64,000 nt of DNA from an uncultured archaeon (GTDB lineage Archaea; Asgardarchaeota; Hermodarchaeia; Hermodarchaeales; Hermodarchaeaceae): the NCBI GenBank assembly GCA_964347045.1, contig CAYFXC010000011.1, positions 1 to 64,000 on the forward strand, read 5' to 3'. How positions within the stretch are numbered: position 1 is the stretch's first letter; every line of letters begins with the position of its first letter. The position numbers and the translations under genes are program-made. The notes beneath the pieces are model-generated. The model searched no databases, was not told the DNA's origin, and worked only from the letters and a program-made list of their open reading frames with translations. Shown here piece after piece: positions 7,202-59,864 of the stretch.

Positions 7202-8218
7202 ATTCCTCGAGGACTTGTCCTTAGTCAATGGGACACGAAAGAAGGACTCAAGATATTATCCAAATATCCAGCTACTTTGGACTTTGAAATAAGTGACTTA
7301 TCCCTCATGTACTATGGGTCTGCACCTGAAGGTAATGGGACATCTTTCCAAGTGTTTCCCTCAATCGAGGTGAAGGAACGCGCTGCTGTTGCCTGTACCC
7401 GCACGCCACTTAAAAGCACCGAAGACGATATCTGTATCACTGTTTTACTGACTGCTGAGGAAGAAGGCGCTGCATATGAGGAAATTCTAAACAAAACGTT
7501 GCAGCGTATCGTAAAAACGAGTGGAAACCCTGCGAACAGAAGACGTAGGTACCGGCAAATTCTATCCGATAGTTATCGAAAAATTGAACGTCGTGGGGGA
7601 TCTCGCGATCAATCTCTTTGTCCCTACATGTATGAAAGACCCATCAAAGACAATAAGTTGACGTCATTTTGTCGGGTTGTAAAGAAACAATGCTATCTAA
7701 CCATCTACGAGATGCCGGGATACCCACAATGTCCCCGCTATATTCGTCGACAACGCCAAATTCAATTGTCTAATGCACGACAACTTGTCCGAGCCGGAAT
7801 TCGTCGCATCCTCGAGGATTATGATCATGAACGACAAAAGTTCAAAGACAAAAAAATAGGGAATTGGGGCGAACCGGTTCACGCAATTCTTGATCGTTTG
7901 TTCTCAATTCTGGAAGTAGAAGCAGAAACCGAAGACTATGCTCACAACGTTGTTGAATATGTAGGTAAAAAGGGGTTATTTCAAGGACATCCTAGACCTA
8001 TCATTGCTGCTTCCATTGCCTATTACAGTGCGAAACAGATTGGAGATTCAATACCCGAAAATGATATAATCGAACTTGTAGGTTGTTCACGTACCTCCCT
8101 GCGTCGCAATTATCGGGAACTTCGTACTCTCCTAAGTTCAGATGAGAAGAAACTCCCCAAACACAAACGAAAGCGACGCATGACGTCTCAAGAAAAAGCA
8201 ATTACTCGTACCGAATAA
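7202..8218 (+). CDS. uDENN/longin-like domain + Cys4 motif + TFIIB cyclin-repeat fusion protein (proposed ATT start)
   Basis: Frame is open upstream of track start 7277 to TGA 7193-7195; ATT 7202 gives IPRGLVLSQWDTKEGLKILSKYP, colinear with MPKGLSVCRWDDKVGLRVVGVYP of the 9299 gene; SD GGTGA 7191-7195; C-terminal KGLFQGHPRPIIAASIAYYSAK..IPENDIIELVGCSRTSLRRNYREL matches the TFB second repeat. Confidence 0.8.
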   Translation: MPRGLVLSQWDTKEGLKILSKYPATLDFEISDLSLMYYGSAPEGNGTSFQVFPSIEVKERAAVACTRTPLKSTEDDICITVLLTAEEEGAAYEEILNKTLQRIVKTSGNPANRRRRYRQILSDSYRKIERRGGSRDQSLCPYMYERPIKDNKLTSFCRVVKKQCYLTIYEMPGYPQCPRYIRRQRQIQLSNARQLVRAGIRRILEDYDHERQKFKDKKIGNWGEPVHAILDRLFSILEVEAETEDYAHNVVEYVGKKGLFQGHPRPIIAASIAYYSAKQIGDSIPENDIIELVGCSRTSLRRNYRELRTLLSSDEKKLPKHKRKRRMTSQEKAITRTE

Positions 8219-8239
8219 ATTCCGGGAGAACACTAAAAG

Positions 8240-9109
8240 ATGATTCACAACGTCTTCCTAATGACTCGCGACGGACGCCTGGCATTCCACCGCCAATACT
8301 GGTCAGTTGATATTACCACCGAAGAACGCCAAGAATTTCTAGCCACCTATAAACATTTCGAATCCGAACTTGGCACTCAAGTTGACTTACCAATCCATGT
8401 CAAGAATATAAAATTCATTTACGCCGAAGCGGGCACACACCTCCTCCTCGTCTTCGCCGTCGATATGAGTGACGAAGATGAAAAAATCAAAGAAACTCTG
8501 AAAAAAACCCGTGAATTCCTTATCAACAATTTTGGTCATGAAATTGATGCATACATCCAAAAGCCGGTTCCCCTTGGTGAAGCGTTCAAAGGCTTCGCAA
8601 CCGAACTCGACAATGTCATTGTTACTATGCTTAAAATTTGCCTACTTGGTCAAGGCGGTGTTGGAAAATCTACGATGCTCAAACTTCTTACTGCAGACAG
8701 CATCCCGGGAGATTACTACCCCACTATTGCTGTCGATATTGAAACCCTCCAAGGCGTTCGCTTCGGTCCCTATGAGTTAGCTGTCTGGGACTTTGCTGGT
8801 CAAGATCGATTCCGTTCATTATGGAATTATTATTTACGGAATGCTGATGCAGTGTTACTTGTTACAGATTCAACGCTAAAGAACGTTCTCGAAACCCGAG
8901 ACATCCTTGAGGTTGTTCGCAAGAACTCTCCCTCATCCATTGTCTGGGCGATTGGAAATAAGCAAGATCTTCCTGGCGCGTTAGCGCCCAAACTAGTCCA
9001 ACGAATTCTCGGCGTTCAAGCCTATGGGCTCGTTGCCATTGATCCACGCTACCGCGAAGTTCTCTACAAAATTATTTTAGGGGCTGTGGCTGAAGCCACC
9101 ACCGATTAA
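8240..9109 (+). CDS. longin domain-Arf-like small GTPase fusion
   Basis: N-terminal MIHNVFLMTRDGRLAFHRQY (AP-sigma/longin type); G1 GQGGVGKS, G2 PTI, G3 WDFAGQDRFRSLW, G4 GNKQD. Confidence 0.9.
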   Translation: MIHNVFLMTRDGRLAFHRQYWSVDITTEERQEFLATYKHFESELGTQVDLPIHVKNIKFIYAEAGTHLLLVFAVDMSDEDEKIKETLKKTREFLINNFGHEIDAYIQKPVPLGEAFKGFATELDNVIVTMLKICLLGQGGVGKSTMLKLLTADSIPGDYYPTIAVDIETLQGVRFGPYELAVWDFAGQDRFRSLWNYYLRNADAVLLVTDSTLKNVLETRDILEVVRKNSPSSIVWAIGNKQDLPGALAPKLVQRILGVQAYGLVAIDPRYREVLYKIILGAVAEATTD

Positions 9110-9298
9110 TGATTCATTTAAATTTCTTCATCGAATTTATTGCGAAAAATTGCAGAAAGCTACAACAAGAAGCCTTTCAAGAGGGGAACCGACAAACAAG
9201 TTAAATACGGGAAACTAAATAGTCAAAACGGAGTGCCAATAGGTCACTTTAAGAACGAAAGGTTCAGATACAATTTATTCAAACGGGAGATTGAAAGT

Positions 9299-10768
9299 AT
9301 GCCAAAAGGTCTAAGTGTTTGCCGGTGGGACGACAAAGTCGGTCTTCGCGTCGTTGGCGTTTATCCTCGAAATCTTGATGTGTCTGAAGACGACATGCTT
9401 CGTGTCTTCACGGCACATGCCATGGGAAAGCCGGAAGCGGGATTTCTAACCATGACTCTCGAAGGAACCAATATGGCTGTAAGTAGTTTCTATACTGGGA
9501 TTCTTCGTGGTCGTGATCAATTTTGCATTATGCTGTTTATGGATTTGGAGGAGGAACCTCGAGCATATGAAGAGGGATTGACGCTTGCCTCAAGTGAGAT
9601 TGTGGAAAATATTGGAGAGCCAGAATTTGTTGAGTATCTTGGTGAAGTTTTTGAGAAGCTGAAACGTATGGTGGAGCTGTCTGTGGAGCAGCGACTTGCC
9701 AAAGTGTTTGTTGATCAAGAAACCCGGTTGCTTATGCACAAGCTGGCTCGCGGAGGGATTCCCGCTGAGGAGCTGCGTGAGTGGCTCGAATTACAGACAG
9801 GGAAACATTATCCGGATTTAGGACTTGTGACATTGCCGCTGTTACGAAGTGGGCTAGTTGAAGAAGATTGGATTAACGCTGTATCAGATAACTGCGTATT
9901 TTTAGTCAATGATCTACTGGGTGCCCGATTTCCACCCGAACAATCACTTAAACTAGCCAAAGGTGGCGGATTGAATAGGGAGCAGTATCGTGAATATGAA
10001 AACCGCATTAAGAGCTTATTTGAGGGATATCAATGGACTGAAGAAGATACGATTATGATTGGACAACTTCTTCTCGATCCGGATATTTATGATGTGACCA
10101 AAACATTGCGGCGGAAGATTGCGCAAAAATCTGAGTTGAAAGGGGTTGTTGAGAAGGAAGCTTCGTTGGATAATGTGCTACGACGTTTAGAGCAAGCACA
10201 AGTGATTACACAAATGGGCACGGACTCCATCGAGATTTCTAAAAAAGATGATCCCCTGATTATGCTGACAGCAGATGTGCACTTTGAATCATTCTTTCCT
10301 GAGTTCTTGGTGCTTCGTATCCAGGAGCGTTTAGAGGCAAAGGATATTCATCCCGATATAGCGAAGCGGCATTTGGAATTACTTAGTGAGACCTATATGC
10401 GTATGCGTGAGAAAATGAAAGAACGCAAGAAACGCAAGAAGGAAGAGGGTGAAGAAGAACTTCCTGAAATGGAAGCGGAAATGGCACCACCTCCTGAACT
10501 CGCTGAAGTTGAACCACCCGAAACCGCTGATTTGCCCCCTGTAGATGAAGCAGAAGCAAAACGCATCCAGAAGGAAGAAGAAAAGAAGCGGAAAGAGGAA
10601 GAAAAACGCCTTAAAGAAGAAGAAAAGAAAAAGAAGAAAGAGGAAGAGCGAAAACGGAAAGAGGATGAAAAGAAGCTGAAAGAAGAAGAGAAACAAAAGA
10701 AGAAGGAAGAGGAAGAAAAGAAGAAAAAAGAAGCTGAGAAGAAAAAGAAAGAAAAGGAAGGTTCATAA
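9299..10768 (+). CDS. uDENN/longin-like + tandem winged-helix protein with E/K-rich charged tail
   Basis: ATG 9299 with GGGAG SD (preferred over 9140); W-D-x-x-x-G...YP uDENN-type N-terminus; two wHTH-like segments (LPLLRSGLVEE; LRRLEQAQVI); E/K tail. Confidence 0.75.
   Translation: MPKGLSVCRWDDKVGLRVVGVYPRNLDVSEDDMLRVFTAHAMGKPEAGFLTMTLEGTNMAVSSFYTGILRGRDQFCIMLFMDLEEEPRAYEEGLTLASSEIVENIGEPEFVEYLGEVFEKLKRMVELSVEQRLAKVFVDQETRLLMHKLARGGIPAEELREWLELQTGKHYPDLGLVTLPLLRSGLVEEDWINAVSDNCVFLVNDLLGARFPPEQSLKLAKGGGLNREQYREYENRIKSLFEGYQWTEEDTIMIGQLLLDPDIYDVTKTLRRKIAQKSELKGVVEKEASLDNVLRRLEQAQVITQMGTDSIEISKKDDPLIMLTADVHFESFFPEFLVLRIQERLEAKDIHPDIAKRHLELLSETYMRMREKMKERKKRKKEEGEEELPEMEAEMAPPPELAEVEPPETADLPPVDEAEAKRIQKEEEKKRKEEEKRLKEEEKKKKKEEERKRKEDEKKLKEEEKQKKKEEEEKKKKEAEKKKKEKEGS
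10561..10765 (+). repeat. purine-rich low-complexity coding repeat encoding an E/K/R single-alpha-helix-like tail
   Basis: EEEKKRKEEEKRLKEEEKKKKKEEERKRKEDEKKLKEEEKQKKKEEEE pattern; near-pure GAA/AAG codons. Confidence 0.85.
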
Positions 10769-14807: not shown

Positions 14808-17800
14808 TTAGTCTCGAAGCCGAATTTCATTCGAAGAAGATATCCATCGGGGACCTAAAGTCTGATTGAATAACGCTATGTAACTTGCCTGATCACTAAC
14901 TACTGCAACAATTTCGCCTTGATTTCCATACGTCGGAGCGATAAGGACCTCTTCTCCATCTCGAGATCCGCCGTAAAACTCCATTTTTGGGTTGTTCCAG
15001 ATTCTTATGTTACCTTGCTGTAAGAGCTTTTGAGCAATTGCTAGATGTTTTTCTCCATCAAGGGTGGTGATGATGTGAATTCGATTTTGGGGTTGTACCT
15101 TACTTAATTCTGTGATAGGAACTTCGTCAAATGAAGGATACACTAAGGTGATGGTTTCATCGACCCGTCGAAACATATCTAGAAGATGAGTTTGGATTCC
15201 TTCACAGGTAACTATTCGCCAAGTTCGTTCCGCTTCCGCCGGTTCCATCTTCGTGAGAGTGTCCCACAAACCGATTAGTATTTCTTCAGTTTGACTAGCT
15301 TGTGTTCGTAATCGGTTTAAAGTTGGTTCCGTTTGGGTTGTAAACAATTGTAAAGTATTGATTGCGGTTGTTTCAGCAGTTTTGGCTCTTGCTGTAATTT
15401 CTTTCGCCAGACTTTGGTATTCTACTTTCAGGGTCTGCCGTTCTTTACTCAGAGTACGGCTAAGACGTCTACCCGTTTGTTGCGTTTGGGTAACCAGTCC
15501 TTCCTTCGCGTTATCAAGAACTTGCTTTATAGTTGCAGTGACAGACCTGTTTTTCTGTTGGAGATCTTTAGACGTGGCACCTTTGAAGTTTTGCAAACTT
15601 TCTTTCATTCGACGCATGCTATCTTGAACAGCACGATTGAGTCGTGTCTCAGTTAAACTCATTGCCTTGCTTTGGCTTTGTAGTGCCTTTTCGACTTCCT
15701 GACCTATCACGGTTTGAAAAGTTTGTGTGTTTTCATCAATCGTGGCGCCTATATCAGAAAGGAGTTTATTAAATTCGGTTTGCGAACGCAATAATTCTGA
15801 TGTTACTGATTCCGAAAGTTTGTTTGACGAATCATCGATTTTAGTTCCAAAAGTAGAAAGATTTTCTCCTAACTGGGCGATCATGTTTTGTGTTGTGGTT
15901 TTTAGCGTTTCAGTATGCAATTGATAGGACTTGTCATTCTTTGAAAGAGTCGTGTTAAGGATATTCTCTAATGCATTATCAATCTCAGTTTGGTTTTGAT
16001 CAAGGACTTCTTTTCCTTCCTTCGCGACATGATTAAGACTATCCTGCATTTGACTTTGTATTTCCCGTGATTGTTCGGCAAGCGATTGAAACGTTGCCGA
16101 AGTTTCTGTGCTCAGGGCTGTTTGTTGAGCATTCATTGTATTCAGTAAGTTAACCTTACTTGTTTCAATTTGCTCAATGAGTTCAGTATCAATAGTTTCG
16201 CTGGTGTATCCAATCTTCTCTACTAATTTTGCAATAACAGTTTGTAATTGAACTAGCTCCTGTTGTAAAGTCGAAACATAGTCATCAGTTTCTTCAGATA
16301 ACGACGAGGCAAATGATTCTAGAAGTTGGTTAATTGCGGCTCTTTGTTCATCGATGCGAGTCGCGTATGTTTGACCAATTTCTTCAATATTTTGCTGAGC
16401 ATAAGGAATTTGTGTATCAGAAACCTCTTCTAATTGTGTTTGAATTTTATTTACGCCTTCAATTAGAACTGTACCCTGTTTTTGAATCAGATCTTGGATG
16501 TTTTTCTTTAAATTGCCAACTCTTGCTTCTTGGGTTTGTAATTCGGATTGTACACTTTCGACAAAAGAATTAGCACTTTCACTTATCTCTGAAAGATATG
16601 AAGTGGTGGTGTTTTCGATTTCACTGGTCATTGTTTTTATTTTTTCAGTTACTGCGGTTTTTTGTACTGATACATCACTACTTAAAGATTCGAGGATAGT
16701 TTGGGTTTCTTGAAGCTGTGCAATACAGTCTTCTTGCATTTCAGTAATACTTTGAGTGATTTGTTCGTTAATTCCCGTTTTTTCGCGATCAATTGCTTGA
16801 ACTGTGGTAGCCAATAGATTGGTTGTATCGTCTTCGAAATTAGTTAAGTTTGTGTTCATATTTACAATGGCTTGGTCGACAGCGGTTCCAATTGCTCTAT
16901 TTAAGGCGGTGAGATTGCCTACAATAGATGAGGAGTAGTCATTGATAATTTTTGTGAGGGGCAACCAGTATTTTTCAATGAGTGTTCGGGTATTTGCATC
17001 TGCCTTTGTTATACGATTAACAATTTTCGTGGTAACCTTGTCAACAGGCTCACTTAGTGATGGAATCTGAGTAGTTGAATATTCACGAAGTTTGGGTTGA
17101 AGCTGAGTTCGAAGTTGCTTTTCTAATGTAGTTTGAAATTGTACTGCTGTCTGGTTTTCTAAAGCTATTTGGTTATCTTTGATTTTTCTTCGATATGTAT
17201 CTATAATATCTCTTCCACTCTTTTTCAGCAGACTATTTAATTGTGTTTTCAAGGATTTTACTAAATTAGCTTGAATTAGTTGTTTGAGCATAGATTGAAA
17301 TTCGTTGTTTACACGTTTTTTATTAGTCAAGTGTTGGCGCTCAAGAGCTGATTGGTATTCAACAAAAACTGATAATAAGTCCATTATTTGGTTGCTCAAG
17401 TGGCGTTCACTTAATTCGGGAATTACTGCCTTATACAGAGCTTCAAGTTTTGTTTCGTTAGATTGGAAAATAGCGGCAATTTGCTTTTCTCTGTTGGTTT
17501 GTTTTTTAAGTTGTGTTCTGAATGTTTGAAAAATGGTTTCTAATTCCTTTGTGAGCTTGTCACACACGACCTTTTTTTCTTTTGTTAAAACTGTTTTGGG
17601 AAGTGTTCGGATTTTTTCAAGAGTTACCTGAAGTAATTTATCGATTTGCTTCTCACGTTTTGTTTGGCGTGAAATTTTCGTTTTACAATCGCGCATAATG
17701 GGTTTTATTTGATTATTGAACGTGTTGATTACTAGCTCATTGTATTTGGAGATTTGTTGGCTGTAAACCTCAATGAATTCATCACGAGCTAAATTGAAGG

Positions 17801-20192
17801 CCGTATCTGATTGCTTATCTTGAAGGCTTTGCTGTGATGCAAGAAATTCTTGAAAACTAGCTGAAATGTTATCTAATTTCAAATTCAGAGCTTTTTTAAT
17901 CACTGAATCGAAACTCTTGAGTCTCGCAGCAGTAATTTGCTTTGGTATTTTAGATTCGATTGCTGTTACCGCTTGTGTTTCTAGAGTTGTCATCTTGTTT
18001 CGTAATGAAGTTTGATAATCATTCAAAGCTTGGAGTGCAAAAAATGGAATATTTTCCCCCAAAATTAAATTCAAATTACTTAGAATTTCTTGATCTCGCT
18101 TTGCTAATTGCGTTGTTAGAGACCGGAAAATTCTGGCAATGGATTTATCACGGCTAATTTGTATCTCAGAAATCGCAGGTTGATAATTACCAACAGTGGT
18201 TTCTATTTTAAGAACCTGTTCTGCGCGAAGCTTGTCCGCGGTGCTTTCGATTCCTTCAGAATATTGTCTAACCATGCTTTCAAGCTTAGCTAATTCTTTT
18301 TGTAGTTCTGAAGTTGTTTTGTTTTTAATTTTTGTAAAAACTGTTCTAAAAGCCCGTGCTTCTTTTTCAAGGGCTTTTTGTTCTCTCACAGCTTGAGCCT
18401 TATTATCCGCTGCCGATTGCCTAATTGCCCCTTGTGCATATTTTAGCTGTCTACTAGCATATTTTGCTAATTGCTTTTCTGTTGCGTCAAGTGTGTTTAT
18501 TGTGGTTGTTGCTTCTGAGTTTAGGAGTTTTTGCATTTGTTTGCTAAACGTTCGATGTTGTTCTTCATGTAATCTGATTTTTGTTTGAAAGTCAGTAAGG
18601 AACCTTTCTGCTGTTTTTTGAACTGTTCGTAATCGACGTTTCAGCCGTCGTCCCACTTGATCAGAAATCGACTTGAAGTTGGTACCAAGGGTTTCTTTTT
18701 GGGTTTTACTTTCTTCGATGAGTGTTTGAAGAAGGGCTTGCACTTCAAGGATTTGAGCCAGGTAGGTATCTCGCATATCAATGCCTAAACCTTGACTTGC
18801 GTTTTCAAGAATTTGTTCATGTTCAGTTTTTACTTGCTCCATCAGGTTAGATAGAGACGCTTTGATTTTAGAAAATTGAGCAAAATTAAGAGACGATGGT
18901 GGCCACTTTGTAACTGTGGTTAAAGCTTCTTTGTGGAGACGCCGTAATTCTAAAGCACTGTGATTGTGGACATTTTTGAGATCTTGAAAGAGCTTTTCGA
19001 TAATTTGTTCTGAGGCGTCTCGATTTGATTTAATTGTTGAATCTATCGTTGTTGCTGCTCTATCCGTTTGCTGGGTGAGGAGACGGTTCTCTGTTATAAC
19101 TATTTTATTTAGCTGGGAAATTATGTTATTCAGTGCCTGAATGCGCTGTGTCCAAGTGTCTCTAATTTGAATGGCGAGATTCTGGTTATGTTTTGTTAAA
19201 TCTTGTTTGAGTTCTTTTTGTAAATTGTCTAGCATCTGTTGTGTTTCTTTTTTATAGGTGCCAATTTCGTTTGTGAGTATAATCGCAGTTTCTTCGGTGA
19301 GTTCAGATATTGCTTCTTTTTGTGAAGTGATATTAGATGCAAAGGTTTTACTTCCTCTATCTATGTTACCTTGAAGAAGAGTGTTTATTTCCTTAAGTTG
19401 TGATTTTACTTGTTCTGAGGTCGCGGTTGTTTTTGATATGAGCTCATCAGCAGTAGAACTTAGCCACTGGTTTGCTTCATCTTGATGGGTATCGATTGCC
19501 TTGGCGGCATCATCTAAGGCAAGTTTTTGTGTATCGCCTAGTTGGATGATTCCCTCATTAATGAGGTTATTTAATGCTTGTTGAATTGAAGTATTTTGGT
19601 TTGAAAGTTCGTCAGCACTTGACGATATTAGATTATCCAGGGATGTTTGCAAGTTTTCAACCAAATTACTCAATACAATGTTAGTTGCCATTGCGGCTTC
19701 GTTTAATGCAATTCCTTGACGCTCATTTAAATTCTCCAAGGCAGTTCGAGTCTGTCTGGTCATTGTTTGCAGCTCGTCGTGAATTTCACCTAATGTTTTG
19801 TTTTGGAGCTTCTGTAATTCTTTCCACGATTCTTGCGTGTCTTTTGTAAACACCTTTACTTCCTGGGCTAATTCTTTATAGGGAGCAAACGCTCGGTAAC
19901 GGGTGACCACACCTGGCAATGATTTGATGAGCTGTTTCTTTTCAAGCTCTTCAATTGTGTTTTTCATTTTGGCCATTGGAATTCCAGAATAATTACTAAC
20001 TTCATCCGCTGTCAGCTGGCCCATAACTAATAATACAGTATATGCCCGGCTTTGAGATTCAGTAAGCCTAACACGAACTTGCAAAGCGGTTAACAACTCA
20101 GATGAAATCTCAATCGGAGTAGCGCATTGAGCCGCACTTATTTCTTTAGGTGAAGTAGTTGGAGACTTTGGGTTACTTTCTTTTGGGGTCAT
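14808..20192 (-). CDS. giant TrmB-family protein: N-terminal wHTH, ~1550-aa amphipathic/coiled-coil insert, C-terminal TrmB effector-type domain
   Basis: LTESQSRAYTVLLVMGQLTADEVSNYSGIP...LEKKQLI...RYRAFAP (TrmB HTH); C-terminal TWRIVTCEGIQTHLLDMFRRVDETITLVYP...RDGEEVLIAP (TrmB EBD/PLD-like fold); Q/E/T/L-rich helical middle. Confidence 0.85.
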   Translation of the reverse strand: MTPKESNPKSPTTSPKEISAAQCATPIEISSELLTALQVRVRLTESQSRAYTVLLVMGQLTADEVSNYSGIPMAKMKNTIEELEKKQLIKSLPGVVTRYRAFAPYKELAQEVKVFTKDTQESWKELQKLQNKTLGEIHDELQTMTRQTRTALENLNERQGIALNEAAMATNIVLSNLVENLQTSLDNLISSSADELSNQNTSIQQALNNLINEGIIQLGDTQKLALDDAAKAIDTHQDEANQWLSSTADELISKTTATSEQVKSQLKEINTLLQGNIDRGSKTFASNITSQKEAISELTEETAIILTNEIGTYKKETQQMLDNLQKELKQDLTKHNQNLAIQIRDTWTQRIQALNNIISQLNKIVITENRLLTQQTDRAATTIDSTIKSNRDASEQIIEKLFQDLKNVHNHSALELRRLHKEALTTVTKWPPSSLNFAQFSKIKASLSNLMEQVKTEHEQILENASQGLGIDMRDTYLAQILEVQALLQTLIEESKTQKETLGTNFKSISDQVGRRLKRRLRTVQKTAERFLTDFQTKIRLHEEQHRTFSKQMQKLLNSEATTTINTLDATEKQLAKYASRQLKYAQGAIRQSAADNKAQAVREQKALEKEARAFRTVFTKIKNKTTSELQKELAKLESMVRQYSEGIESTADKLRAEQVLKIETTVGNYQPAISEIQISRDKSIARIFRSLTTQLAKRDQEILSNLNLILGENIPFFALQALNDYQTSLRNKMTTLETQAVTAIESKIPKQITAARLKSFDSVIKKALNLKLDNISASFQEFLASQQSLQDKQSDTAFNLARDEFIEVYSQQISKYNELVINTFNNQIKPIMRDCKTKISRQTKREKQIDKLLQVTLEKIRTLPKTVLTKEKKVVCDKLTKELETIFQTFRTQLKKQTNREKQIAAIFQSNETKLEALYKAVIPELSERHLSNQIMDLLSVFVEYQSALERQHLTNKKRVNNEFQSMLKQLIQANLVKSLKTQLNSLLKKSGRDIIDTYRRKIKDNQIALENQTAVQFQTTLEKQLRTQLQPKLREYSTTQIPSLSEPVDKVTTKIVNRITKADANTRTLIEKYWLPLTKIINDYSSSIVGNLTALNRAIGTAVDQAIVNMNTNLTNFEDDTTNLLATTVQAIDREKTGINEQITQSITEMQEDCIAQLQETQTILESLSSDVSVQKTAVTEKIKTMTSEIENTTTSYLSEISESANSFVESVQSELQTQEARVGNLKKNIQDLIQKQGTVLIEGVNKIQTQLEEVSDTQIPYAQQNIEEIGQTYATRIDEQRAAINQLLESFASSLSEETDDYVSTLQQELVQLQTVIAKLVEKIGYTSETIDTELIEQIETSKVNLLNTMNAQQTALSTETSATFQSLAEQSREIQSQMQDSLNHVAKEGKEVLDQNQTEIDNALENILNTTLSKNDKSYQLHTETLKTTTQNMIAQLGENLSTFGTKIDDSSNKLSESVTSELLRSQTEFNKLLSDIGATIDENTQTFQTVIGQEVEKALQSQSKAMSLTETRLNRAVQDSMRRMKESLQNFKGATSKDLQQKNRSVTATIKQVLDNAKEGLVTQTQQTGRRLSRTLSKERQTLKVEYQSLAKEITARAKTAETTAINTLQLFTTQTEPTLNRLRTQASQTEEILIGLWDTLTKMEPAEAERTWRIVTCEGIQTHLLDMFRRVDETITLVYPSFDEVPITELSKVQPQNRIHIITTLDGEKHLAIAQKLLQQGNIRIWNNPKMEFYGGSRDGEEVLIAPTYGNQGEIVAVVSDQASYIALFNQTLGPRWISSSNEIRLRD

Positions 20193-20311
20193 TCATCATC
20201 ACTTCATTTCACTACAGTTTCTCACGTACGGTTTCTGAGCTCTTACACTCTACGACACTATTTGATTCTCATCACCCTCTATAAGGATGACGTGTCGAAA
20301 AATTGGCGAAT

Positions 20312-21557: not shown

Positions 21558-22040
21558 TCAAGCAGGAAAATGACGGTATTTCAGATAATTCAACGCTTCG
21601 TAGAAATATTTCCCACCAAAAACCCCGCTGGTCTTTAAACCTCCTAGATGCGGGTAAAAAGTATCAAAATGAAGGTGATCTGTATTAATTGCAACTCCGG
21701 GTGCTTCGATTTCATCAAAAAACGCTGCCAAATATCAGGATCCTCACTATATACTGAAGTTCGAATTCCATAAGGTGTATTATTGGCTTGAGTAATTGCT
21801 TGATCAAAGCATTGAATCTTCATGATTGGCAAGACCGGACCAAAGGTTTCTTGGTACCAGATGCGACAATCGAGAGGTACATCTCGGAGCACGGTTGGCT
21901 TATAGAATAAACCCGCTTCATCACGATCGCCGTGGACATTAATACGATAACCTCCACATACCAGTTTTGCTCCTTTCTTTAGGGCTTCTTGGGTCATATC
22001 GATTACTTGATACAAAGCACGTGTTGCCACCAATTAAGGA
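21558..22040 (-). pseudogene. aldehyde dehydrogenase 3' remnant (5'-truncated, frameshifted)
   Basis: GAKLVCGG, FYKPTVL, ETFGPVLPI, ANNTPYG; frame shifts in an A6 run at ~21717-21722, other frame continues DEIEAPGVAIN...HLGGLKTSG to stop at 21558; NAD-binding half and catalytic Cys absent. Confidence 0.8.
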
Positions 22041-45712: not shown

Positions 45713-47272
45713 TCATTCAGAAGGAGGCTGCTCCTTTTTTGGTTCCCAGATTCCAATCTTCTTGTAAATAGTAATCAATGGATCTAACCGTCCCTTCGAA
45801 ATCCGTGAGACAATGGCCATTTCATCTTGTGTAAAAGTAGAGAATAATGCCGAAAACAAAAGTAAGGTGAGAAATGAAATTCCTGTTATTACGAGTGTAT
45901 CAACAATGTCAAGTGGTGCAAACCACAAAGCTAACAAGAAAACTATAATTGTCTGTACAACTCCTAGACTTACCAATTGAATTACTGCCTTCTTTCCGAG
46001 AAGTTTCATCTCAGGAGTTTGCCAAGTAATTAGACAAAACGCGAAGAAATAACCCAACATCATCGAAAGGGCAACTCCAAAAACCTCGAGAGCTTGAACC
46101 CAACCCAATAAAAAGAACACGATAAGAAAAATCGAAAATCCGATTACGTAACTAATTTGAAACGCTAACATCTTGTATGTTTCTCCTTTCGCCCCCCGAA
46201 TATTTCCCATTAATGCTGTAAACGCGAAAAGTACCATGGTTACAGAAGCTATTGAGAGGAGTAGTTGGTTATCTGCTAGGAGATATTGTTCCCCCAGTAT
46301 TAGACCAATCAGGGGAAGACCGGCAAAGGCTAAAATCGGTGCAACGAAGAAAATGGCTATAGAGAGCATTTTTGTAGTTACTCCAAGGGCAACACCTGCT
46401 CTTGAGGAGCGTTGTTGAAAAACCATAGTCATGATTGGAAAAAAGGGAATCAAAAGTGTCAAAATTGCCTCTTGAGCAATCCCAGTAATTCTTGTTACTA
46501 GGTGATAATTCGCTAGGTCAGTTAGTGTAAAAAAAAGTAGTATTATATATCGATCAATAAATGATCGCAACGATCGAAAAAGAAAGTTGAAAAATACAGG
46601 AATTGTAAAAATGATCAAAGCTTTTGAAGGCCACGTTAGCTTGAAAAATGAACGTGACCATTTAAGGTCGCTTCTAGGAATCATAACTAACAAAACGAGT
46701 AAATCTGCTAGAAGCCATCCAATAAAAATTGAAGTTATGTTAGAGGTGAAGAAAAAGAATACAAGTGGAAATATAAAATTCAAAATGGTTTGAATCGCAA
46801 CATAAACTAGGCTCAATTCAATTTTTAGATAAGACTGATAGATGTATTGGAAAAGTGGGAAAAGACTGAAAACCACCACAGTAAGGATGAAAATTATTGC
46901 ATCATTAGACCAAATTGGGATCGAAACGGTAAGCAAATAAAGAACTGCTGTTGTTGGGGCAAACAGGATTGTAATTAGTATGCCATAGAGGGTTATTCTG
47001 TGGATGATTTTTTCGGCTTCTTGGTGATCCTTTTCAGATAATGCTCTCTGTTGTAAGGTCCACCCAATCCACGGGGCTAAAATTGATCCAATAAATGAAA
47101 TTCCCAATGCAAAGATTTGAACGTAGCCATATTCAGCTGGTAATAACCAGCGGGCCATAAAAAATATGTAGACAATCTGAACCGAACGAACGAGGATTAT
47201 TCGTATCCAACCGATGGATGTAGTTCGTGCATATATTGCCGCTAATTCAGGATCTTTCGGTTCATCAGCCAT
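45713..47272 (-). CDS. oligosaccharide flippase (Wzx/MOP family)
   Basis: ARWLLPAEYG, IDRYII, ANY, FPIM; ~13-14 TM. Confidence 0.85.
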   Translation of the reverse strand: MADEPKDPELAAIYARTTSIGWIRIILVRSVQIVYIFFMARWLLPAEYGYVQIFALGISFIGSILAPWIGWTLQQRALSEKDHQEAEKIIHRITLYGILITILFAPTTAVLYLLTVSIPIWSNDAIIFILTVVVFSLFPLFQYIYQSYLKIELSLVYVAIQTILNFIFPLVFFFFTSNITSIFIGWLLADLLVLLVMIPRSDLKWSRSFFKLTWPSKALIIFTIPVFFNFLFRSLRSFIDRYIILLFFTLTDLANYHLVTRITGIAQEAILTLLIPFFPIMTMVFQQRSSRAGVALGVTTKMLSIAIFFVAPILAFAGLPLIGLILGEQYLLADNQLLLSIASVTMVLFAFTALMGNIRGAKGETYKMLAFQISYVIGFSIFLIVFFLLGWVQALEVFGVALSMMLGYFFAFCLITWQTPEMKLLGKKAVIQLVSLGVVQTIIVFLLALWFAPLDIVDTLVITGISFLTLLLFSALFSTFTQDEMAIVSRISKGRLDPLITIYKKIGIWEPKKEQPPSE

Positions 47273-47390
47273 TTGCTTTCACCGGCTAGGTGCTTGAGGG
47301 GAATAAAAAAGTGCTCAAGATTTGATTCTCCACCTTGAAAGACCTCGCCTATCAATCTTTTTGTAAAGGTTTGTGTTGTAGAAACTAATT

Positions 47391-48524
47391 TTAATTTGCC
47401 TTGAAGAAATCGATGATAGCTTTTGAAATATAGTCGAGTTCTTCTTCAGTCATAAGCGGGAATATTGGTAGTGTCAGGACTTCTGATGAAAGAAGCTCAG
47501 TTTTGGGTAATTTAATTGCTCCAAAACCAAGTTTTTGAAATACTGAGTACTTGTGTACTGGATCGAAATACACTTTTGTAGTTATTCCTTTATTCGTTAA
47601 ATGTTGCATTAGTTCGTTTCGGTTCTTCTTGCCATCTTTGACTCTAATCGGATACATTTGGTAAACGCAAAAGAATTCGTCACTTGGAGGAGTTAGAGGG
47701 ACTATTTCGTCAATATCACTCAAACGTTTATTCAAATAGTTTGCATTTCTTCGTCGCATCCCAATTAAGTCATCTACCCTTTTTAATTGAGAAATACCAA
47801 GAGCTGCAAGAATTGTTGACATACGAAGATTGTAACCTACATTGACATAATCTATCTCTCCACTACTCGAAAAATAATCCCCCTCTGTTATTCGTCCATA
47901 GGATCTGAATAGCCTAGTTTTTTCCATTAATTCATTATCGTCAGTGACTACAGCCCCTCCTTCACTAGTAGTAAAGACTTTATTTTGACAAAAACTGAAA
48001 ATTGCTGAATCGCCAAAAGTTCCCATATATCTGTTCTTGAACTTGGCTCCAAATGCTTCAGCAGCATCCTCGATTAGGATTAGGTTATGTTCTAATGCCA
48101 ATTCATGGAGTGAATCAATTTGGCAGGGCATTCCACCATAATGAATTGGCATAATTGCTTTAGTCTTTGAAGTTATTTTTTGTTTTACATCCTCCGCATC
48201 TAGACCAAATGTTTGTTCCTCAACATCTGCGAAAACTGGCTCTGCTCCCACATAAAGAGGGGCATAAGCGGTTGCAATGAATGTAAAAGAGGGAACAATA
48301 ATTTCATCGCCCTTTGAGAAACCATATGATTCCATCAGTGCTTGTAATGCTGAACCTCCTGAATTAAGGAGAATACAATATTTCAAACCCAAATAATCAG
48401 CGATTTTCACTTCAAGTTCTTCAATCTCTTCACCGATACACCAATGTTTTCCTGATCGAATCACTTTCTCTATTAGCTTGAGATCATCCTCATTCCAATG
48501 TATCTTGAAAAGTGGAATATCCAA
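47391..48524 (-). CDS. DegT/DnrJ/EryC1 sugar aminotransferase (LegC/PglE-like)
   Basis: NSGGSAL, VPSFTFIATA, IEDAAEAFGA, FSFCQNKVFTTSEGG, GYNLRM, LTLP. Confidence 0.93.
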   Translation of the reverse strand: MDIPLFKIHWNEDDLKLIEKVIRSGKHWCIGEEIEELEVKIADYLGLKYCILLNSGGSALQALMESYGFSKGDEIIVPSFTFIATAYAPLYVGAEPVFADVEEQTFGLDAEDVKQKITSKTKAIMPIHYGGMPCQIDSLHELALEHNLILIEDAAEAFGAKFKNRYMGTFGDSAIFSFCQNKVFTTSEGGAVVTDDNELMEKTRLFRSYGRITEGDYFSSSGEIDYVNVGYNLRMSTILAALGISQLKRVDDLIGMRRRNANYLNKRLSDIDEIVPLTPPSDEFFCVYQMYPIRVKDGKKNRNELMQHLTNKGITTKVYFDPVHKYSVFQKLGFGAIKLPKTELLSSEVLTLPIFPLMTEEELDYISKAIIDFFKAN

Positions 48525-48531
48525 TGCAAAT

Positions 48532-48951
48532 TCACCCCTTTCCGGTCTCCGTTTCAGTAAAATGTCTCATAACTTTGGCAGGAATGCCATATGCAATAAC
48601 ATTCCTTGGTAGACTCTTCTTTACATAACTAAATGCGCCAACAACTGTATTTTCTCCTATCGTTACCCCAGGCATAATCACTGAATGAGTTCCGATTTTT
48701 ACATTTCGTTCAATTACGACTTTGCCTTTCTTGTCGTCGATGGTTGAATGAGAATATATGGCGCAATGTGAGCCTACTTGAACTCCTTCCCCAATTATTA
48801 CTGTATATTTGGCATTGATGTATGTGAAAGCACCTATATCAGAATTTTTTCCAAGTTCAAGGTTTTCATGGTGTTGACACATCCAATTCCACTTCGTGAG
48901 ACCTTTCTCATCGAATTCGGGATATTTCCAGTCTTTGAATCGTTTTTTCAT
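48532..48951 (-). CDS. hexapeptide-repeat sugar acetyltransferase
   Basis: LbetaH repeats IGEGVQVG..IGTHSVIMPGVTIGENTVVGA, G.PAK. Confidence 0.88.
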   Translation of the reverse strand: MKKRFKDWKYPEFDEKGLTKWNWMCQHHENLELGKNSDIGAFTYINAKYTVIIGEGVQVGSHCAIYSHSTIDDKKGKVVIERNVKIGTHSVIMPGVTIGENTVVGAFSYVKKSLPRNVIAYGIPAKVMRHFTETETGKG

Positions 48952-48972
48952 CGAAAATACACCTGCATCTTT

Positions 48973-50154
48973 TTAATATGTTAATTTCTTTTGCAAAAGC
49001 CTCTTACCTAATTGAATTGTGTTTAAGGCTTCGACGATTTTTGTACTAGCAGTTCCATTACCGTATGGTGTAATTCTTTTTTCAACCTGGGTCCGAAACA
49101 CGCTATCTGATATGGTTTTTTCAATGGCTGCAGTTATTTCGCCTTTACTATAACCCACATCGATTGTGTTGTTGGCTCTTTCTCGATTCTTTTGCCTTGT
49201 TCCTATACTGACAAAGGGCACCCCTAAAGATGGAGCCTCGATAATTCCGCTGCTCGAGTTACCCACAAATACTGAGGACAAACTCATCATAGAGATGAAG
49301 TCAAGATGTGCTAAATTTTTGAATACATGGACCTTTTCCCTATTTTTCACAAACTTGGAAATGATTTTGATCATTTCCAAGCCCCCCGGATAGTCATTCG
49401 GATATATTACAACAATATCTAAATCATGGTCTCTTGCAACTAAATCAACTGACTCCAAAACTAGTCGCATCTGTGCGCTCATTTCTTGCCATTCTGTTGT
49501 AGTAGGATGATGCACGACTAGGATGTATGAATTTTGAGTCATATCAAATTTCTTGGCGAGTTCCTTCCTCGACAATAGTTTTGAATTAAGTATCGTATCA
49601 AGTGCAAGAGCACCAACATTCATAACTCTCCATTCCTCTTCTCCGAGTTTCAGAACTCTTTCCTTACTTAATTCAGTCTGAACAAAATGAAGATGAGCTA
49701 GCTTGGTAATCGCATGTCTTAACACATGATCAATATCTCCAAAACCCACGTCACCCCCCGCAAGATGGGCGATGGGAATATTCATTGTCGTTGCAGCTGT
49801 AGCCGCTGCAAAAGGTTCATTCCTATCACCTAGGACCACAACAATATCCGGTTTGTCCTGATGAAATAAATCTGAAAAACCCAACACGCCTTTGCCAATC
49901 GAAACAGCTAAGTCATGAGTGTTAGTCATAGCTTTTGCGCCCATATCAACAATAGCTGATATCTCAAAACCATCATTTTGTATCTCTTTTATTGAATCCC
50001 CTTGATCTTTCAATAGGTGCATACCTGTAACATAAACTCGAAGAATTAGATCTGGATGATTATCAATTGATAGCATTAGGGGTCTCAAATAACCATACTC
50101 AGCTCTTGTACCAGTGATTACACCGATTTTTCGTGTCATCTGCCTGCACTCCAA
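48973..50154 (-). CDS. neuC: hydrolysing NDP-N-acetylhexosamine 2-epimerase (NeuC/LegG)
   Basis: TGTRAEYG, TGMHL, LGDR.E, H..GGD, RHAITKLAHLHF, GNSSSGIIEAP, G.RQ..R. Confidence 0.93.
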   Translation of the reverse strand: MECRQMTRKIGVITGTRAEYGYLRPLMLSIDNHPDLILRVYVTGMHLLKDQGDSIKEIQNDGFEISAIVDMGAKAMTNTHDLAVSIGKGVLGFSDLFHQDKPDIVVVLGDRNEPFAAATAATTMNIPIAHLAGGDVGFGDIDHVLRHAITKLAHLHFVQTELSKERVLKLGEEEWRVMNVGALALDTILNSKLLSRKELAKKFDMTQNSYILVVHHPTTTEWQEMSAQMRLVLESVDLVARDHDLDIVVIYPNDYPGGLEMIKIISKFVKNREKVHVFKNLAHLDFISMMSLSSVFVGNSSSGIIEAPSLGVPFVSIGTRQKNRERANNTIDVGYSKGEITAAIEKTISDSVFRTQVEKRITPYGNGTASTKIVEALNTIQLGKRLLQKKLTY

Positions 50155-50316
50155 AGACTAGCGGATTCTCGTTTATTACTTCTTTCCTCAGGAAATATGC
50201 TTAGTTTCGAATATAGTTCTAGTAAAAACTTCAAAAACGCAATACTTCAATCGCACTTCAAATGAAACTAGATATTATGAATCCACGTTAATCGATTTTA
50301 TGAAACACCCCGTCAA

Positions 50317-51366
50317 TCATTCAAGCATATTCCATTTTAGAACTTGTTCGCGTTCTATTGCAACTTTTGTTTTTTTCCCGATTATCTCTCTCAGATGTTT
50401 TGGCGCGATCCCAGATCCTGGCCTTTTAATAGCAATCATTTCTTCAGTAAGGGTCGTACCTCGTTGGATATCTCTTTTAGCAACCAAACTTTTCCTAACA
50501 ACCTCTCGTATTCTCATTTCAGATTCGGTTGGATTCTTAATTCCATCTCCCAATGCATTTTCTACACTTCTTACAATTTGTACAAATTCTGATAATTCCT
50601 TTGGCTCCATTGATGCTTTATGATCCGGTCCTGGCATTTGCCTGTCGAGAGTGAAATGTTTCTCTATTACACAAGCACCTAATGAAACTGCTGCAATTGA
50701 ACCCGTAACACCAACTGTATGATCTGAAAATCCAACTGGAACTCCATAGGTGTTTCTTAATGTTACCATTGCACGAAGATTTATCGTTTCTAACGATGCT
50801 GGATAGTTTGTTACGCAATGTAACAAGACTATCTTCTGGTTTCCTTTTTGCCTAATTGTATCCATTGCCTCTCCAACTTCTTCCAGGGTTGCCATTCCAG
50901 TTGATATTATCATTGGTTTTTTGTATGAAGCCACAAGCTCAAGAAAAGGCAGATTTGTTAGATCACCTGATGCGATCTTAAAAACTGGAAGTAAGGGGTC
51001 CAAAAAGGCTACTGCACTTGGTGAATGCGGGGTTGAAAGAAATTTAATGCCCTTTTTATCGCAATATTCTTTTAGCTCAACAAAAGCGTTAAAATCAAGC
51101 TCCAAGCTCTTGATCATCTCAAATTGGCTAGTAATCTCTTCGTATTCTTGCTTCTGATAATCTGCCATCTCGGCTCGCTTAGTAACTAAATCTTCAGCTT
51201 TGAACGTTTGAAATTTAACAGCATCTGCGCCTGACTCTTTGGCAGAATCAACAAGCATTTTTGCTATTCCAAGATTACCATTATGATTAACTCCCGCTTC
51301 CGCAATGATGTAGGTCGGTTCTCCCTCACCGATATATTTTGGCCCTATTTTTATTTTGTAACTCAA
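50317..51366 (-). CDS. neuB: nonulosonic acid synthase (NeuB/LegI) with C-terminal SAF domain
   Basis: IIAEAGVNHNG, DAVKFQT, KIASGD, STGM, LHC.T.YP, GFSDHT, EKHFTLD...GPDH, KRPG.GI.P; start probably TTG 51366. Confidence 0.95.
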   Translation of the reverse strand: MSYKIKIGPKYIGEGEPTYIIAEAGVNHNGNLGIAKMLVDSAKESGADAVKFQTFKAEDLVTKRAEMADYQKQEYEEITSQFEMIKSLELDFNAFVELKEYCDKKGIKFLSTPHSPSAVAFLDPLLPVFKIASGDLTNLPFLELVASYKKPMIISTGMATLEEVGEAMDTIRQKGNQKIVLLHCVTNYPASLETINLRAMVTLRNTYGVPVGFSDHTVGVTGSIAAVSLGACVIEKHFTLDRQMPGPDHKASMEPKELSEFVQIVRSVENALGDGIKNPTESEMRIREVVRKSLVAKRDIQRGTTLTEEMIAIKRPGSGIAPKHLREIIGKKTKVAIEREQVLKWNMLE

Positions 51367-51385
51367 TTTTACCAACCATATAATT

Positions 51386-52093
51386 TTAATCAAAATGAAA
51401 ATGGCCTGATTCAATTAAGAATTCTATGAATTTAAAATCAATTTCTCTATCAATATCTATTGACGCTATCTCATCCATCACATAGATCTTTGCTCGTTCA
51501 CAGTGCAAGCTTTTTGCATCTATAAGAAAATCCCGGTCATAAATATAGATTGAGCCATTTATCTCATATACTACTGGTGCGTCTTGCCTACGAAAGACTT
51601 CTGAACCAAGCCTTTTAGACAAACAAGCATTTTCATTTTCATCAAGTTCAACCATATTAAAATACGGATTTTTCTTTGCCACGGTAACACTATAAAGAAC
51701 CTGTGGTTTAGTTTGAATGAATTTTTCTAAAGCTTTATCTAAATCACTCAGGGTTCGTAAAGGTGCAGTGGGATCGAGATCAACGACCATATCATATTTT
51801 GTTTTGTAATGCTCCTCACAGAATTTTAACGCATGTTGGATGACAGGGATTTTTGGTGTAGTATCGGTGGCTAATTCCTTCGGTCGCAAGAATGGAGTTT
51901 CTGCTCCATATTCATTTGCGATTCTAGCTATTTCTGGTGAGTCGGTGGAAGTAATAATCCTGGATGCTTTGTTCCATTTCTTCATCACAGAAATTGTATA
52001 GTAGATGAGTGGTTTTCCTCCAATATTCCTAATATTCTTACTTGGAACACCTTTGGAGCCACCTCGTGCACATATGGTACCTAATATATTCAT
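51386..52093 (-). CDS. neuA: acylneuraminate cytidylyltransferase (NeuA/LegF)
   Basis: ARGGSKGVPSKN, STDS, RP.ELA.D, PT.PLR, RRQD, NGSIY, DID...DF. Confidence 0.95.
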   Translation of the reverse strand: MNILGTICARGGSKGVPSKNIRNIGGKPLIYYTISVMKKWNKASRIITSTDSPEIARIANEYGAETPFLRPKELATDTTPKIPVIQHALKFCEEHYKTKYDMVVDLDPTAPLRTLSDLDKALEKFIQTKPQVLYSVTVAKKNPYFNMVELDENENACLSKRLGSEVFRRQDAPVVYEINGSIYIYDRDFLIDAKSLHCERAKIYVMDEIASIDIDREIDFKFIEFLIESGHFHFD

Positions 52094-52339
52094 AACAGCT
52101 ATCCCCGTTATTTAACTCAACCTAATATACTCCGTCCTTTTAACATGTGTTTTCTTTATGTTCCCTATGTACATCCCTAAGTCATCGGAAAGATTACTTG
52201 TTTGAAAAGAGTAATTTGATATTTAATAGACACTTTGCAATAATCCGTAGGTTTCAAAAGAATCAAAGAGGACTGAACTGGTGAACGGCTCTAAAGAGGT
52301 TTAAAAATTCTGGCAGAGGTGGTTTTAGTTCTGCCCTTT

Positions 52340-53287
52340 TCATTCAGTTCGATCATTTCTTACTTTCCATTGTGAGAAGTCATAGGTGGGTGGGCGAATT
52401 GCGTAAAGTGTTGAGGAGACTTTATTGACATAAGGCGTTTCCGTGGAGGTGTGAAGTTCTTCGTCTTTCTTCTCCCCGAACTCAGGTGTTCCATAGACAA
52501 TCTCTACATCATCATACTGCTTATCCTTTATCCACTCCCGTGCCACATCGATGATGAGTTTGCGATCTTTCTTTGAGAGCGCGGGGAAAAAGATTTCACC
52601 ACCACTCATTTTCTCAAAGGATTCGATGAGGAACTCTACTGCCCTATCAATATGGATAAAGTAGCGCGTCATCTTCGAGTCACGCACTATGAGTTTTCCC
52701 ATAGTACGATACTGGAATTCCCATGCTTCAAAGACATTTCCTGCTGTTTCCATCACATTCGGAAAGCGTGCGGAACTCAACATAAGAGGTCTATCGCCTT
52801 TGATGTAATTAGCAGCAAGGATAAGGCGTTCACCGATGAGTTTGCTGGCTCCCATCATACTCGTTGGATTCACTGCTTTATCCGTGCTGATGTAAAGGAA
52901 TTTCTCTAGAGTTGGTGTATCAAAGGCTGCGCGGATTGCATTCTGAGTGCCAATAACATTTGTTTCTACTGCGTCAAAGGGATTATACTCGCAGAGAGCA
53001 ACATGCTTCAAGGCTGCACAGTGAAAAACATGCTTAACACCAAACATTGCCTCTTTTAGTCGAGGATAGTCACGTACATCGCCCACGAGAAATCGGAGAT
53101 TCGGATTCTTGAGTCGTTCTCGAAGATACCATATCCCATACTCATTATTGTCGAAGACACGGATGGTGTATTCATCACCCATTGTATTGACGAGGTGTTC
53201 TGTCAGGGCTGAGCCGATTGAGCCAGATCCGCCAGTAACGAGGATGGCGGGCTTGGTTTCTTTCGCCTTTTTCTTTGATTTACTCAA
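52340..53287 (-). CDS. NDP-GlcNAc 4,6-dehydratase (CapD/PglF/LegB-like SDR)
   Basis: TGGSGSIG, GDVRD, HCAALKHV..CEYNP, STDKAVNPTSMMGASK (MxxxK variant), MTRYF, GEK..EEL. Confidence 0.9.
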   Translation of the reverse strand: MSKSKKKAKETKPAILVTGGSGSIGSALTEHLVNTMGDEYTIRVFDNNEYGIWYLRERLKNPNLRFLVGDVRDYPRLKEAMFGVKHVFHCAALKHVALCEYNPFDAVETNVIGTQNAIRAAFDTPTLEKFLYISTDKAVNPTSMMGASKLIGERLILAANYIKGDRPLMLSSARFPNVMETAGNVFEAWEFQYRTMGKLIVRDSKMTRYFIHIDRAVEFLIESFEKMSGGEIFFPALSKKDRKLIIDVAREWIKDKQYDDVEIVYGTPEFGEKKDEELHTSTETPYVNKVSSTLYAIRPPTYDFSQWKVRNDRTE

Positions 53288-55572: not shown

Positions 55573-55619
55573 TTAGCCAACAACAGACTGAGCTAATCAA
55601 ATTGGCTTCTGTGAATACA

Positions 55620-56717: not shown

Positions 56718-56729
56718 TTCCCCTTTTTT

Positions 56730-58102: not shown

Positions 58103-58356
58103 TCCTACAACCTGTTGCATTTTCGGATCTTTGCTTCTTAATTTAGAATGTTGGTTTTGAATTTTTAGTTTTTTAATTCGTGGTCTGCCTATATCCATAA
58201 AAGGTCTAATTAAATCTGTTATTGATAGATGCGTATGTCAACAGAGCAACTTTATACGTTCAGTAAGACAATTCATGAACCTGCAAAAATAAATGAAATT
58301 GAAGCTAAAGTTCACGTGCTCCACGCAGATGGTTTTTTCATTGAATCAAATTCGAT

Positions 58357-59493: not shown

Positions 59494-59528
59494 TCCCGCG
59501 AATCGCATATTTGAACGAATACCTTAGT

Positions 59529-59760: not shown

Positions 59761-59864
59761 GTGTTTCTTAAGCAGATTAAATTTGATTTAACCAGATAAA
59801 TACGAGGAATTTTATTCAGGAATAGTCTTCAAGTAAAGCCAATTATATCTTCCAATAATAACCA

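Follow-up and report, generated by a model that had tools for sequence, protein, structure and literature searches.

The window analysed here, a 64,000-nucleotide stretch from an uncultured archaeon of the Hermodarchaeaceae, contains a gene at positions 14808-20192 of the reverse strand that encodes a protein of 1794 amino acids (aa), referred to below as the giant protein. As judged from sequence comparisons and structural models, both of its ends are shown to be of the type found in TrmBL2, a nucleoid-associated protein of Thermococcales (TK0471 / PF0496; PDB entries 5bpd, 5box, 5bpi and 5bqt), and the helix that links them is enlarged by about 1540 residues. The resulting rod has an 11-residue (hendecad) repeat, keeps an almost constant length among orthologs while its sequence drifts fast, and is predicted to fold back on itself near its midpoint. 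The TrmBL2-like architecture and the fold-back, taken together, are considered highly probable. The new elements are the hendecad repeat, the fixed length, the fold-back symmetry and the phylum-wide family to which the protein belongs; full-text literature searches found no published description of this family.

The N-terminal end is recognised directly. The TrmB-type winged helix-turn-helix (wHTH) family of Pfam, PF01978, matches aa 40-104 with 43.5 bits against a cut-off of 25.6, or with 47.1 bits when a fragment is used. In a plain sequence search, TrmBL2 (5bpd) aligns with aa 34-137 at E 2.6e-7 and TrmB (3qph) at E 3.3e-5, and the 5bpd alignment continues into the start of the TrmBL2 linker helix (aa 112-137 of the giant protein). 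The more specific NCBIfam models stay far below their cut-offs. The TrmB model (NF040851) scores 34.7 bits against 600, so that the equivalog level is not reached, and the TrmBL2 model (NF041141) scores 28.5 bits against 530, over the N-terminal part only. Ahead of the wHTH lies a tail of 30 residues in which some Pro and Lys are kept (for example KSPTTSPKE) and which resembles the basic SPK-type tails of DNA-binding proteins.

The C-terminal end is recognised through its predicted fold and its family profile. Direct Pfam and PDB sequence searches with the last 165 residues gave nothing meaningful. An AlphaFold2 (AF2) model of aa 1600-1794, built on 51 family sequences, has a mean predicted local distance difference test (pLDDT) score of 88.8 and shows a helix up to aa 1648 followed by a PLD-like domain. 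Its best fold match is TrmBL2 (E 1e-9, identity 15-18%) and its second the sugar-binding domain of TrmB, 2f5t (E 4e-7, root-mean-square deviation 2.6 A over 139 columns); full-length TrmB comes next, and then proteins of the PLD superfamily (Nuc, NucT, PLD, Zucchini and FAM83, E 1e-6 to 1e-5). The H-x-K of the catalytic PLD motif HxK(x)4D was not seen in the sequence of the domain. Pfam family PF11495 (Regulator_TrmB) is not matched directly by the giant protein itself. Short relatives with the same domain do match it, at positions 2-135 of 233, one of them (P0147) with 22.7 bits against a cut-off of 22.2, and the relatives with this domain score E 1e-6 to 1e-16 against the C-terminal domain profile. 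The family profile is also colinear, though weakly (E 0.085), with TrmBL2 residues 78-221, including a common D-EEV motif, and in this comparison the TrmBL2 linker helix, its end included, aligns to aa ~1607-1661. The start and the end of that helix therefore flank the rod, and the initial annotation of the window, which had placed an insert within the connecting helix of a protein with TrmB-type termini, agrees with the matches at both ends.

The C-terminal domain is the most conserved part of the giant protein, with a mean column identity of 88%, and R1676, P1686, N1728, D1745, E1748, A1752 and P1753 are near-invariant across the family. The chain ends about 145 residues past the start of this domain, and the sugar-binding second half of the TrmB effector domain is absent. 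Because only the PLD-like half is present, the architecture resembles that of TrmBL2 and is not that of a sugar sensor. The effector-type domain initially assigned to the C-terminus is consequently retained as regards its TrmB/TrmBL2 fold and is reduced to the PLD-like first subdomain as regards its extent. Conservation is likewise high at the adjoining parts of the rod: over its first ~100 residues the ascending arm equals the wHTH in this respect. Since the PLD-like domain and the ~100 residues with which each arm begins are so strongly conserved, a precise interaction is suggested at the base, which may be self-association or the binding of a ligand.

Between the end domains lie about 1540 helical residues. 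The rod (aa 110-1660) contains 2.1% Gly and 1.0% Pro, and the giant protein has no Walker A motif, no CxxC and no membrane segment (the maximum Kyte-Doolittle value of a 19-residue window is 1.16), in keeping with the Gly/Pro-poor rod free of Walker motifs described at the outset. When the hydrophobic pattern of the rod is averaged over 20 orthologs, it gives one sharp spectral peak at 3.66-3.68 residues (11/3), and the power at 3.5 residues (heptad) is near zero almost everywhere. The rod is thus a hendecad helix and not a heptad one, which answers the question, raised in the initial annotation, of a 7- or an 11/22-residue periodicity. Large hydrophobic residues occupy hendecad positions a, d/e and h and, in part, k. 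They make up 26% of the residues and form a narrow stripe that covers about 3 of the 11 positions and resembles the stripe of straight coiled coils. The hendecad phase is coherent in blocks of about aa 101-410, 431-715, 739-950 (weaker) and 1014-1640, and it breaks at the WPPSS motif (aa 430-434), around P716 and around aa 950-1000. In the descending arm, an AF2 helix break at aa 1043-1046 lies within a Pro-containing stretch. The breaks at aa 430-434, and at aa 712-716 facing aa 1033-1049, may act as joints of the rod.

The constancy of the rod length was examined among orthologs. A search of about 5.8 billion proteins retrieved 25 relatives of the giant protein, and the full-length ones among them are all 1788-1795 residues long and 45-68% identical to it. 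In the alignment of 20 orthologs, which extends down to 45% identity, 1796 columns contain four single-residue insertions or deletions (indels) inside the rod, and an ortholog with 32% identity still has 1792 aa. Sequence drift is faster than in the surroundings: in four syntenic genomes the mean identity of the giant protein is 39%, while that of seven neighbouring genes is 66-82%. Nevertheless, the giant protein has 3.3 gap events per 1000 columns in this comparison against 5.2-21.4 in the five neighbours that bear indels; two further neighbours, an aminotransferase and an Arf-like GTPase, have none. The near-constant length of a fast-drifting rod is thereby shown, and it is rod length rather than rod sequence that selection preserves. 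Other orthologous groups encountered in a genome survey keep lengths of their own, such as 760-765, 803-814, 838, 1816 and 1916 aa.

The same orthologs bear on the authenticity of the gene. The frame is intact from end to end, and at least 20 full-length homologs of 1788-1795 aa come from independent assemblies in several sources (ENA, JGI, NCBI and Logan assemblies), where they are labelled Promethearchaeota or Hodarchaeota. A DNA-level scan identified further orthologs in metagenome-assembled genomes of Hermodarchaeota, including Candidatus Hermodarchaeum yapensis. The start, both ends and an upstream element are conserved among the orthologs. An assembly chimera is excluded because full-length orthologs of equal length occur in independent assemblies, and since no supporting point was found for a decaying gene either, the probability that the frame is chimeric or decaying is negligible. 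The gene was originally taken for a single real open reading frame, with the reservation that it could be a chimera lacking full-length homologs; the former is confirmed by the intact frame and the conserved Asgard orthologs, and the latter is ruled out.

Fold-back of the rod at aa ~870-874, giving two antiparallel arms of about 740 residues, is well supported but indirectly so, by conservation patterns and by models. The predicted length of the folded rod, roughly 105-110 nm if straight, is supported in the same indirect way, and so are a small four-helix tip and the placing of both TrmBL2-like domains side by side at the base. The per-column conservation of the rod is mirror-symmetric about aa 873.5, a point exactly halfway between the wHTH and the C-terminal domain. 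The mirror correlation is r 0.74 over 743 residue pairs and amounts to 0.62-0.63 after 110-190 residues have been trimmed from each end, whereas the best direct-shift control of the conservation profile reaches r 0.35-0.40. None of 5000 phase-randomised surrogates reached the observed mirror correlation at the fixed centre. An invariant pair of QxxRxxQ motifs, Q843/R846/Q849 and Q898/R901/Q904, is exactly mirrored, with position sums of 1747. The inter-arm hydrophobic registers coincide at the same sum of 1747 for aa 112-408 and at 1749 for aa 440-840, and the WPPSS motif moves this register by about 2 residues.

Structural models and family-wide comparisons point in the same direction. Segmental AlphaFold modelling, which had been suggested as a check, returned the TrmBL2-like fold of aa 1600-1794 described above and, for aa 640-1110, an all-helical apex with a pLDDT of 82.3, a loop at aa 869-873 and symmetric breaks at aa 843-846 and 898-901. 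Over its full length the apex model can be superposed on antiparallel coiled-coil hairpins (PrgA, Smc and Rad50 arm fragments, and a chemoreceptor), and its middle, about aa 801-948, on four-helix bundles; the structural-match Z values of 8-11 are ordinary for helical models and are used for topology, not homology. A complex prediction of aa 1-330 against aa 1420-1794, run without controls, gave a score of 0.19 against a mark of 0.32 and is given no weight in either direction. Mirror symmetry near the rod midpoint recurs in two other paralog groups, where it is robust to end-trimming and high-pass filtering; among the eight other paralog groups tested for it, one is positive but not robust. 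In the 74 family members with both end domains, prolines are over-represented at 47.5-50% of the rod (19 against an expected 5.6, p 6e-6), and in several subfamilies the exact rod midpoint is occupied by a motif that is rich in Gly/Pro or loop-like in another way. Of the two geometries originally offered, an extended rod and one folded back to about half of 230 nm, the folded one is favoured by the mirror symmetry, the AF2 loop and the midpoint proline.

The giant protein belongs to an Asgard family, called here the TrmB-headed hendecad rod family, whose members combine a wHTH, a hendecad rod and a C-terminal PLD-like domain. When the profile of the C-terminal domain was compared with 1.84 billion cluster representatives, 199 proteins were found; apart from a few weak hits, all of them have the domain at their C-terminal end or close to it. 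The proteins with this domain have 323 to 1907 residues, and an 11/3 rod and the wHTH are also present in most of them. Rod length spans 224-1687 residues among the 74 members that possess both end domains. The genome survey was confined to the Asgard phylum and covered 151 genomes, of which 147 (71 of 72 high-quality ones) contain one to six matches to the family profile. Named members are all Asgard (Promethearchaeota, Hermod-, Hel-, Hod-, Kari-, Njord-, Sigyn-, Borr- and Ranarchaeia), and the Asgard distribution and length variation on which the initial annotation had sought information are hereby described. A second, divergent family member, 630 aa long, is encoded on a different contig of the genome studied here (C9, 115850-117742, forward strand), beside a MoCF_biosynth gene; its TrmB wHTH is weak, its C-terminal domain is that of the family (E 4.6e-26), and its 11/3 periodicity is less pronounced. 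Neither this gene nor that of the giant protein shares an operon with an ATPase and a further rod protein. The expectation that such proteins would be misnamed as SMC was not borne out: the names met are "helix-turn-helix domain-containing protein", "sugar-specific transcriptional regulator TrmB" and "hypothetical protein", and no SMC family of Pfam or NCBIfam matches the giant protein.

These features can be combined into a proposed mechanism. The two TrmBL2-like domains, sitting together, would form a base that binds DNA as TrmBL2 does. The far end of the rod is modelled as a four-helix tip with the two mirrored invariant QxxRxxQ motifs, and the rigid, length-selected rod would keep this conserved tip about 100 nm off the DNA. 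The protein would then work passively, independently of ATP, as a spacer, tether or steric barrier that helps to organise the chromosome, and not as a ligand-switched sugar regulator. An object of fixed length, about 100 nm long and attached to DNA, would imply a spatial function such as spacing, tethering or insulation. The proposal as a whole, a TrmBL2-type protein with a fold-back rod acting as a DNA-anchored spacer or tether, is regarded as reasonably probable. The spacer or tether function, taken by itself, is put forward tentatively, with somewhat less than even expectation. An extension to the entire family is rather unlikely to hold in full: its members would be ATP-independent, DNA-anchored molecular rulers of about 15-125 nm according to rod length, fixed per orthologous group and present in several sizes per genome, whose rods set chromatin-to-structure or DNA-to-DNA distances or form a bottle-brush barrier.

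Several observations weigh against the proposal. Five of the eight other paralog groups give no significant mirror signal, which is attributed to their comprising two to six sequences or having ~20% identity, or to their being borderline. The AF2 model of the apex has 21 sequences behind it and a predicted template modelling score of 0.37. Fine registration between the arms is noisy, since the local best position sums for conservation in 77-residue windows range from 1712 to 1792. The charge complementarity of mirrored arm segments (correlation -0.12 to -0.26) has no distinctive minimum at the mirror centre. Finally, the gene neighbourhood yields no functional clue for the giant protein.

The rival explanations differ in what the rod would do. 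An unfolded rod could form an extended parallel coiled-coil dimer about 230 nm long, which would carry its two wHTH and its two PLD-like domains at opposite ends and serve as a long-range bridge between DNA and another structure. The long uninterrupted phase-coherent blocks would suit such a dimer, as would the behaviour of TrmB and TrmBL2, in which the linker helix pairs with that of a second subunit. However, it would predict neither mirrored conservation centred on the rod midpoint nor the central AF2 loop, the fold-back topology and the family-wide enrichment of prolines and loops at the midpoint, and it is judged very unlikely. A similarly low probability is given to a cytoskeleton-like polymer, in which rods would join side by side or end to end to build filaments or lattices, and the wHTH would attach DNA to the polymer. 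The additional hydrophobic residues at k, besides those at a, d/e and h, might provide one more interface, and unusual repeat lengths are known in bacterial cytoskeletal coiled coils such as Scy and FilP. Nevertheless, there is no sign of self-assembly, the hydrophobic content fits two-stranded packing, and the conservation of the tip and of the base speaks for a rod with defined ends, not for a continuous polymer.

Somewhat less improbable, yet still unlikely, is an ordinary TrmB-type regulator with a hendecad sensory module, for instance amphipathic 11-mers that bind membrane or lipid in the manner of apolipoproteins, perilipins or phasins and thereby switch DNA binding. TrmB-family proteins are mostly regulators, lipid-surface helices are typically built of 11-residue repeats, and a conserved, genome-unique upstream element could serve as an auto-operator. 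Weak sub-threshold Pfam matches to Apolipoprotein, ApoLp-III and Phasin also occur in the giant protein and its relatives. These matches, however, are all far under their curated cut-offs (Apolipoprotein, PF01442, 18.9 bits against 90), and the Apolipoprotein match is explained by the 11-residue periodicity only; the apolipoprotein-like lipid sensor suggested in the initial annotation is not supported. The narrow hydrophobic stripe is unlike the broad faces of lipid-binding helices, the protein lacks a membrane segment, and a lipid sensor would give no reason for near-absolute length conservation or for mirrored conservation.

The DNA-anchored, folded-back rod would be of interest for several reasons. 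No known prokaryotes are more closely related to eukaryotes than Asgard archaea, whose organisation of chromosomes and cell interior is largely unknown. In this phylum, a near-universal family, often present in several copies, couples a chromatin-protein head to a rigid rod. To our knowledge, no archaeal nucleoid protein with a spacing, tethering or insulating role of this kind has been described. If true, such molecular rulers would be a prokaryotic counterpart of the spacer and tether coiled coils of eukaryotes. For structural studies, the family also provides hendecad antiparallel coiled coils whose length is naturally graded.

The order aminotransferase / giant / DNA ligase / SSB / VTT / RNase HII is kept even at the locus of the 32%-identical ortholog. 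This arrangement belongs to a gene order that the lineage conserves in general, and a Helarchaeota paralog does not have it. Upstream of the gene, the element CCTTATAGAGGG is invariant in the corresponding regions of four orthologs and occurs once in this genome; it is probably a promoter or operator. Over positions 16001-20000 of the window, the G+C content falls to 0.36-0.38, compared with about 0.43 in the flanks, and the AT skew is -0.26 to -0.28. Both features are ascribed to the biased amino-acid composition of the rod, the product being rich in Thr, Leu, Gln, Glu and Lys, and not to a foreign origin of this stretch, given the conserved synteny.

Other features of the window were noted in passing. 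Between the aminotransferase and an FAD-binding oxidoreductase, positions 21644-22033 of the reverse strand retain only 129 aa of an aldehyde dehydrogenase, which match positions 312-414 of the 461 in Pfam Aldedh. Orthologous loci have a full gene of 552 aa at this place, usually with an acyl-CoA dehydrogenase of ~675 aa alongside, and about 3 kb thus appears to have been lost from this genome. Positions 7277-10768 of the forward strand encode a 313-aa protein, an Arf/Ras-like small GTPase (289 aa) and a 542-aa protein, in an order kept in all orthologous loci examined. The 542-aa protein has no Pfam match, and the counterparts of the 313-aa protein have no Pfam family on record; the trio may be an Asgard small-GTPase module. 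The part of the window at 46001-64000 has a broadly lower G+C content (0.37-0.40) than the rest (0.42-0.45). The coordinates of the gene and its parts are collected in the table.

Table. Features of the giant TrmBL2-like gene and its product, with positions in the window
Feature	Position	Strand	Description
Giant TrmBL2-like gene	14808..20192	(-)	1794 codons + stop, frame open throughout
Upstream element CCTTATAGAGGG	20275..20286	(-)	12 nt, TATA-like TTATA, about 90 nt 5' of ATG
N-terminal tail, aa 1-30	20103..20192	(-)	Pro/Ser/Thr/Lys-rich, poorly conserved (consensus mostly x)
TrmB-type winged helix-turn-helix, aa 40-104	19881..20075	(-)	Pfam PF01978
Ascending arm (predicted), aa 105-842	17667..19880	(-)	Hendecad helix; periodicity, phase blocks, mirrored conservation
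WPPSS motif, aa 430-434	18891..18905	(-)	W430/P431/P432 invariant, S433/S434 consensus; interrupts hendecad phase
Break around G712-P716, ascending arm	18045..18059	(-)	Mirrors Pro-containing stretch aa 1033-1049
Hairpin tip (predicted), aa 843-901	17490..17666	(-)	Two short helices around loop aa 869-873
Pro-containing stretch, aa 1033-1049, descending arm	17046..17096	(-)	P1044 invariant; opposite aa ~698-714
Descending arm (predicted), aa 902-1648	15249..17489	(-)	Hendecad helix, phase-coherent about aa 1014 to 1640
C-terminal PLD-like domain (TrmB/TrmBL2 type), aa 1649-1794	14811..15248	(-)	AF2 fold, family profile

Among known systems, SMC, Rad50 and MukB offer a parallel to the predicted rod. 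They too possess a long antiparallel intramolecular coiled coil that unites the termini, with a conserved arm length, and the AF2 apex model superposes on coiled-coil fragments of Smc and Rad50 with Z ~9, a likeness of topology only. In contrast to these proteins, the giant protein lacks an ATPase head (Walker A is missing), a hinge domain and a zinc hook (CxxC is missing), its repeat is hendecad where theirs is mainly heptad, and there is no sequence relationship. RacA of Bacillus subtilis and Spc110 carry a DNA-binding or anchoring domain on a long coiled coil that sets a distance or tethers the chromosome; the comparison is one of function by analogy only, without homology to the giant protein.

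The end domains lead to a different set of relatives. TrmB, the sugar-sensing regulator of Thermococcales (3qph, 2f5t), shares with the giant protein the PF01978 wHTH and the PLD-like first effector subdomain, but the second, sugar-binding subdomain is missing from the giant protein, which also remains far from the TrmB equivalog on the NCBIfam scale (34.7 versus 600 bits). TrmBL2 is a protein of 264 residues, of which about 35 form the linker helix, whereas the giant protein has about 1540 inserted hendecad residues with a predicted fold-back; the two are not orthologs (NCBIfam 28.5 versus 530 bits), and the identity of their C-terminal domains is 15-18%. Nevertheless, TrmBL2 is the best solved match for both ends of the giant protein. 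The wHTH, the linker helix and a single PLD-like C-terminal domain follow each other in the same order in both proteins, without a sugar-binding subdomain, and the D-EEV motif and an "ER.W.V" junction between helix and domain are common to the two.

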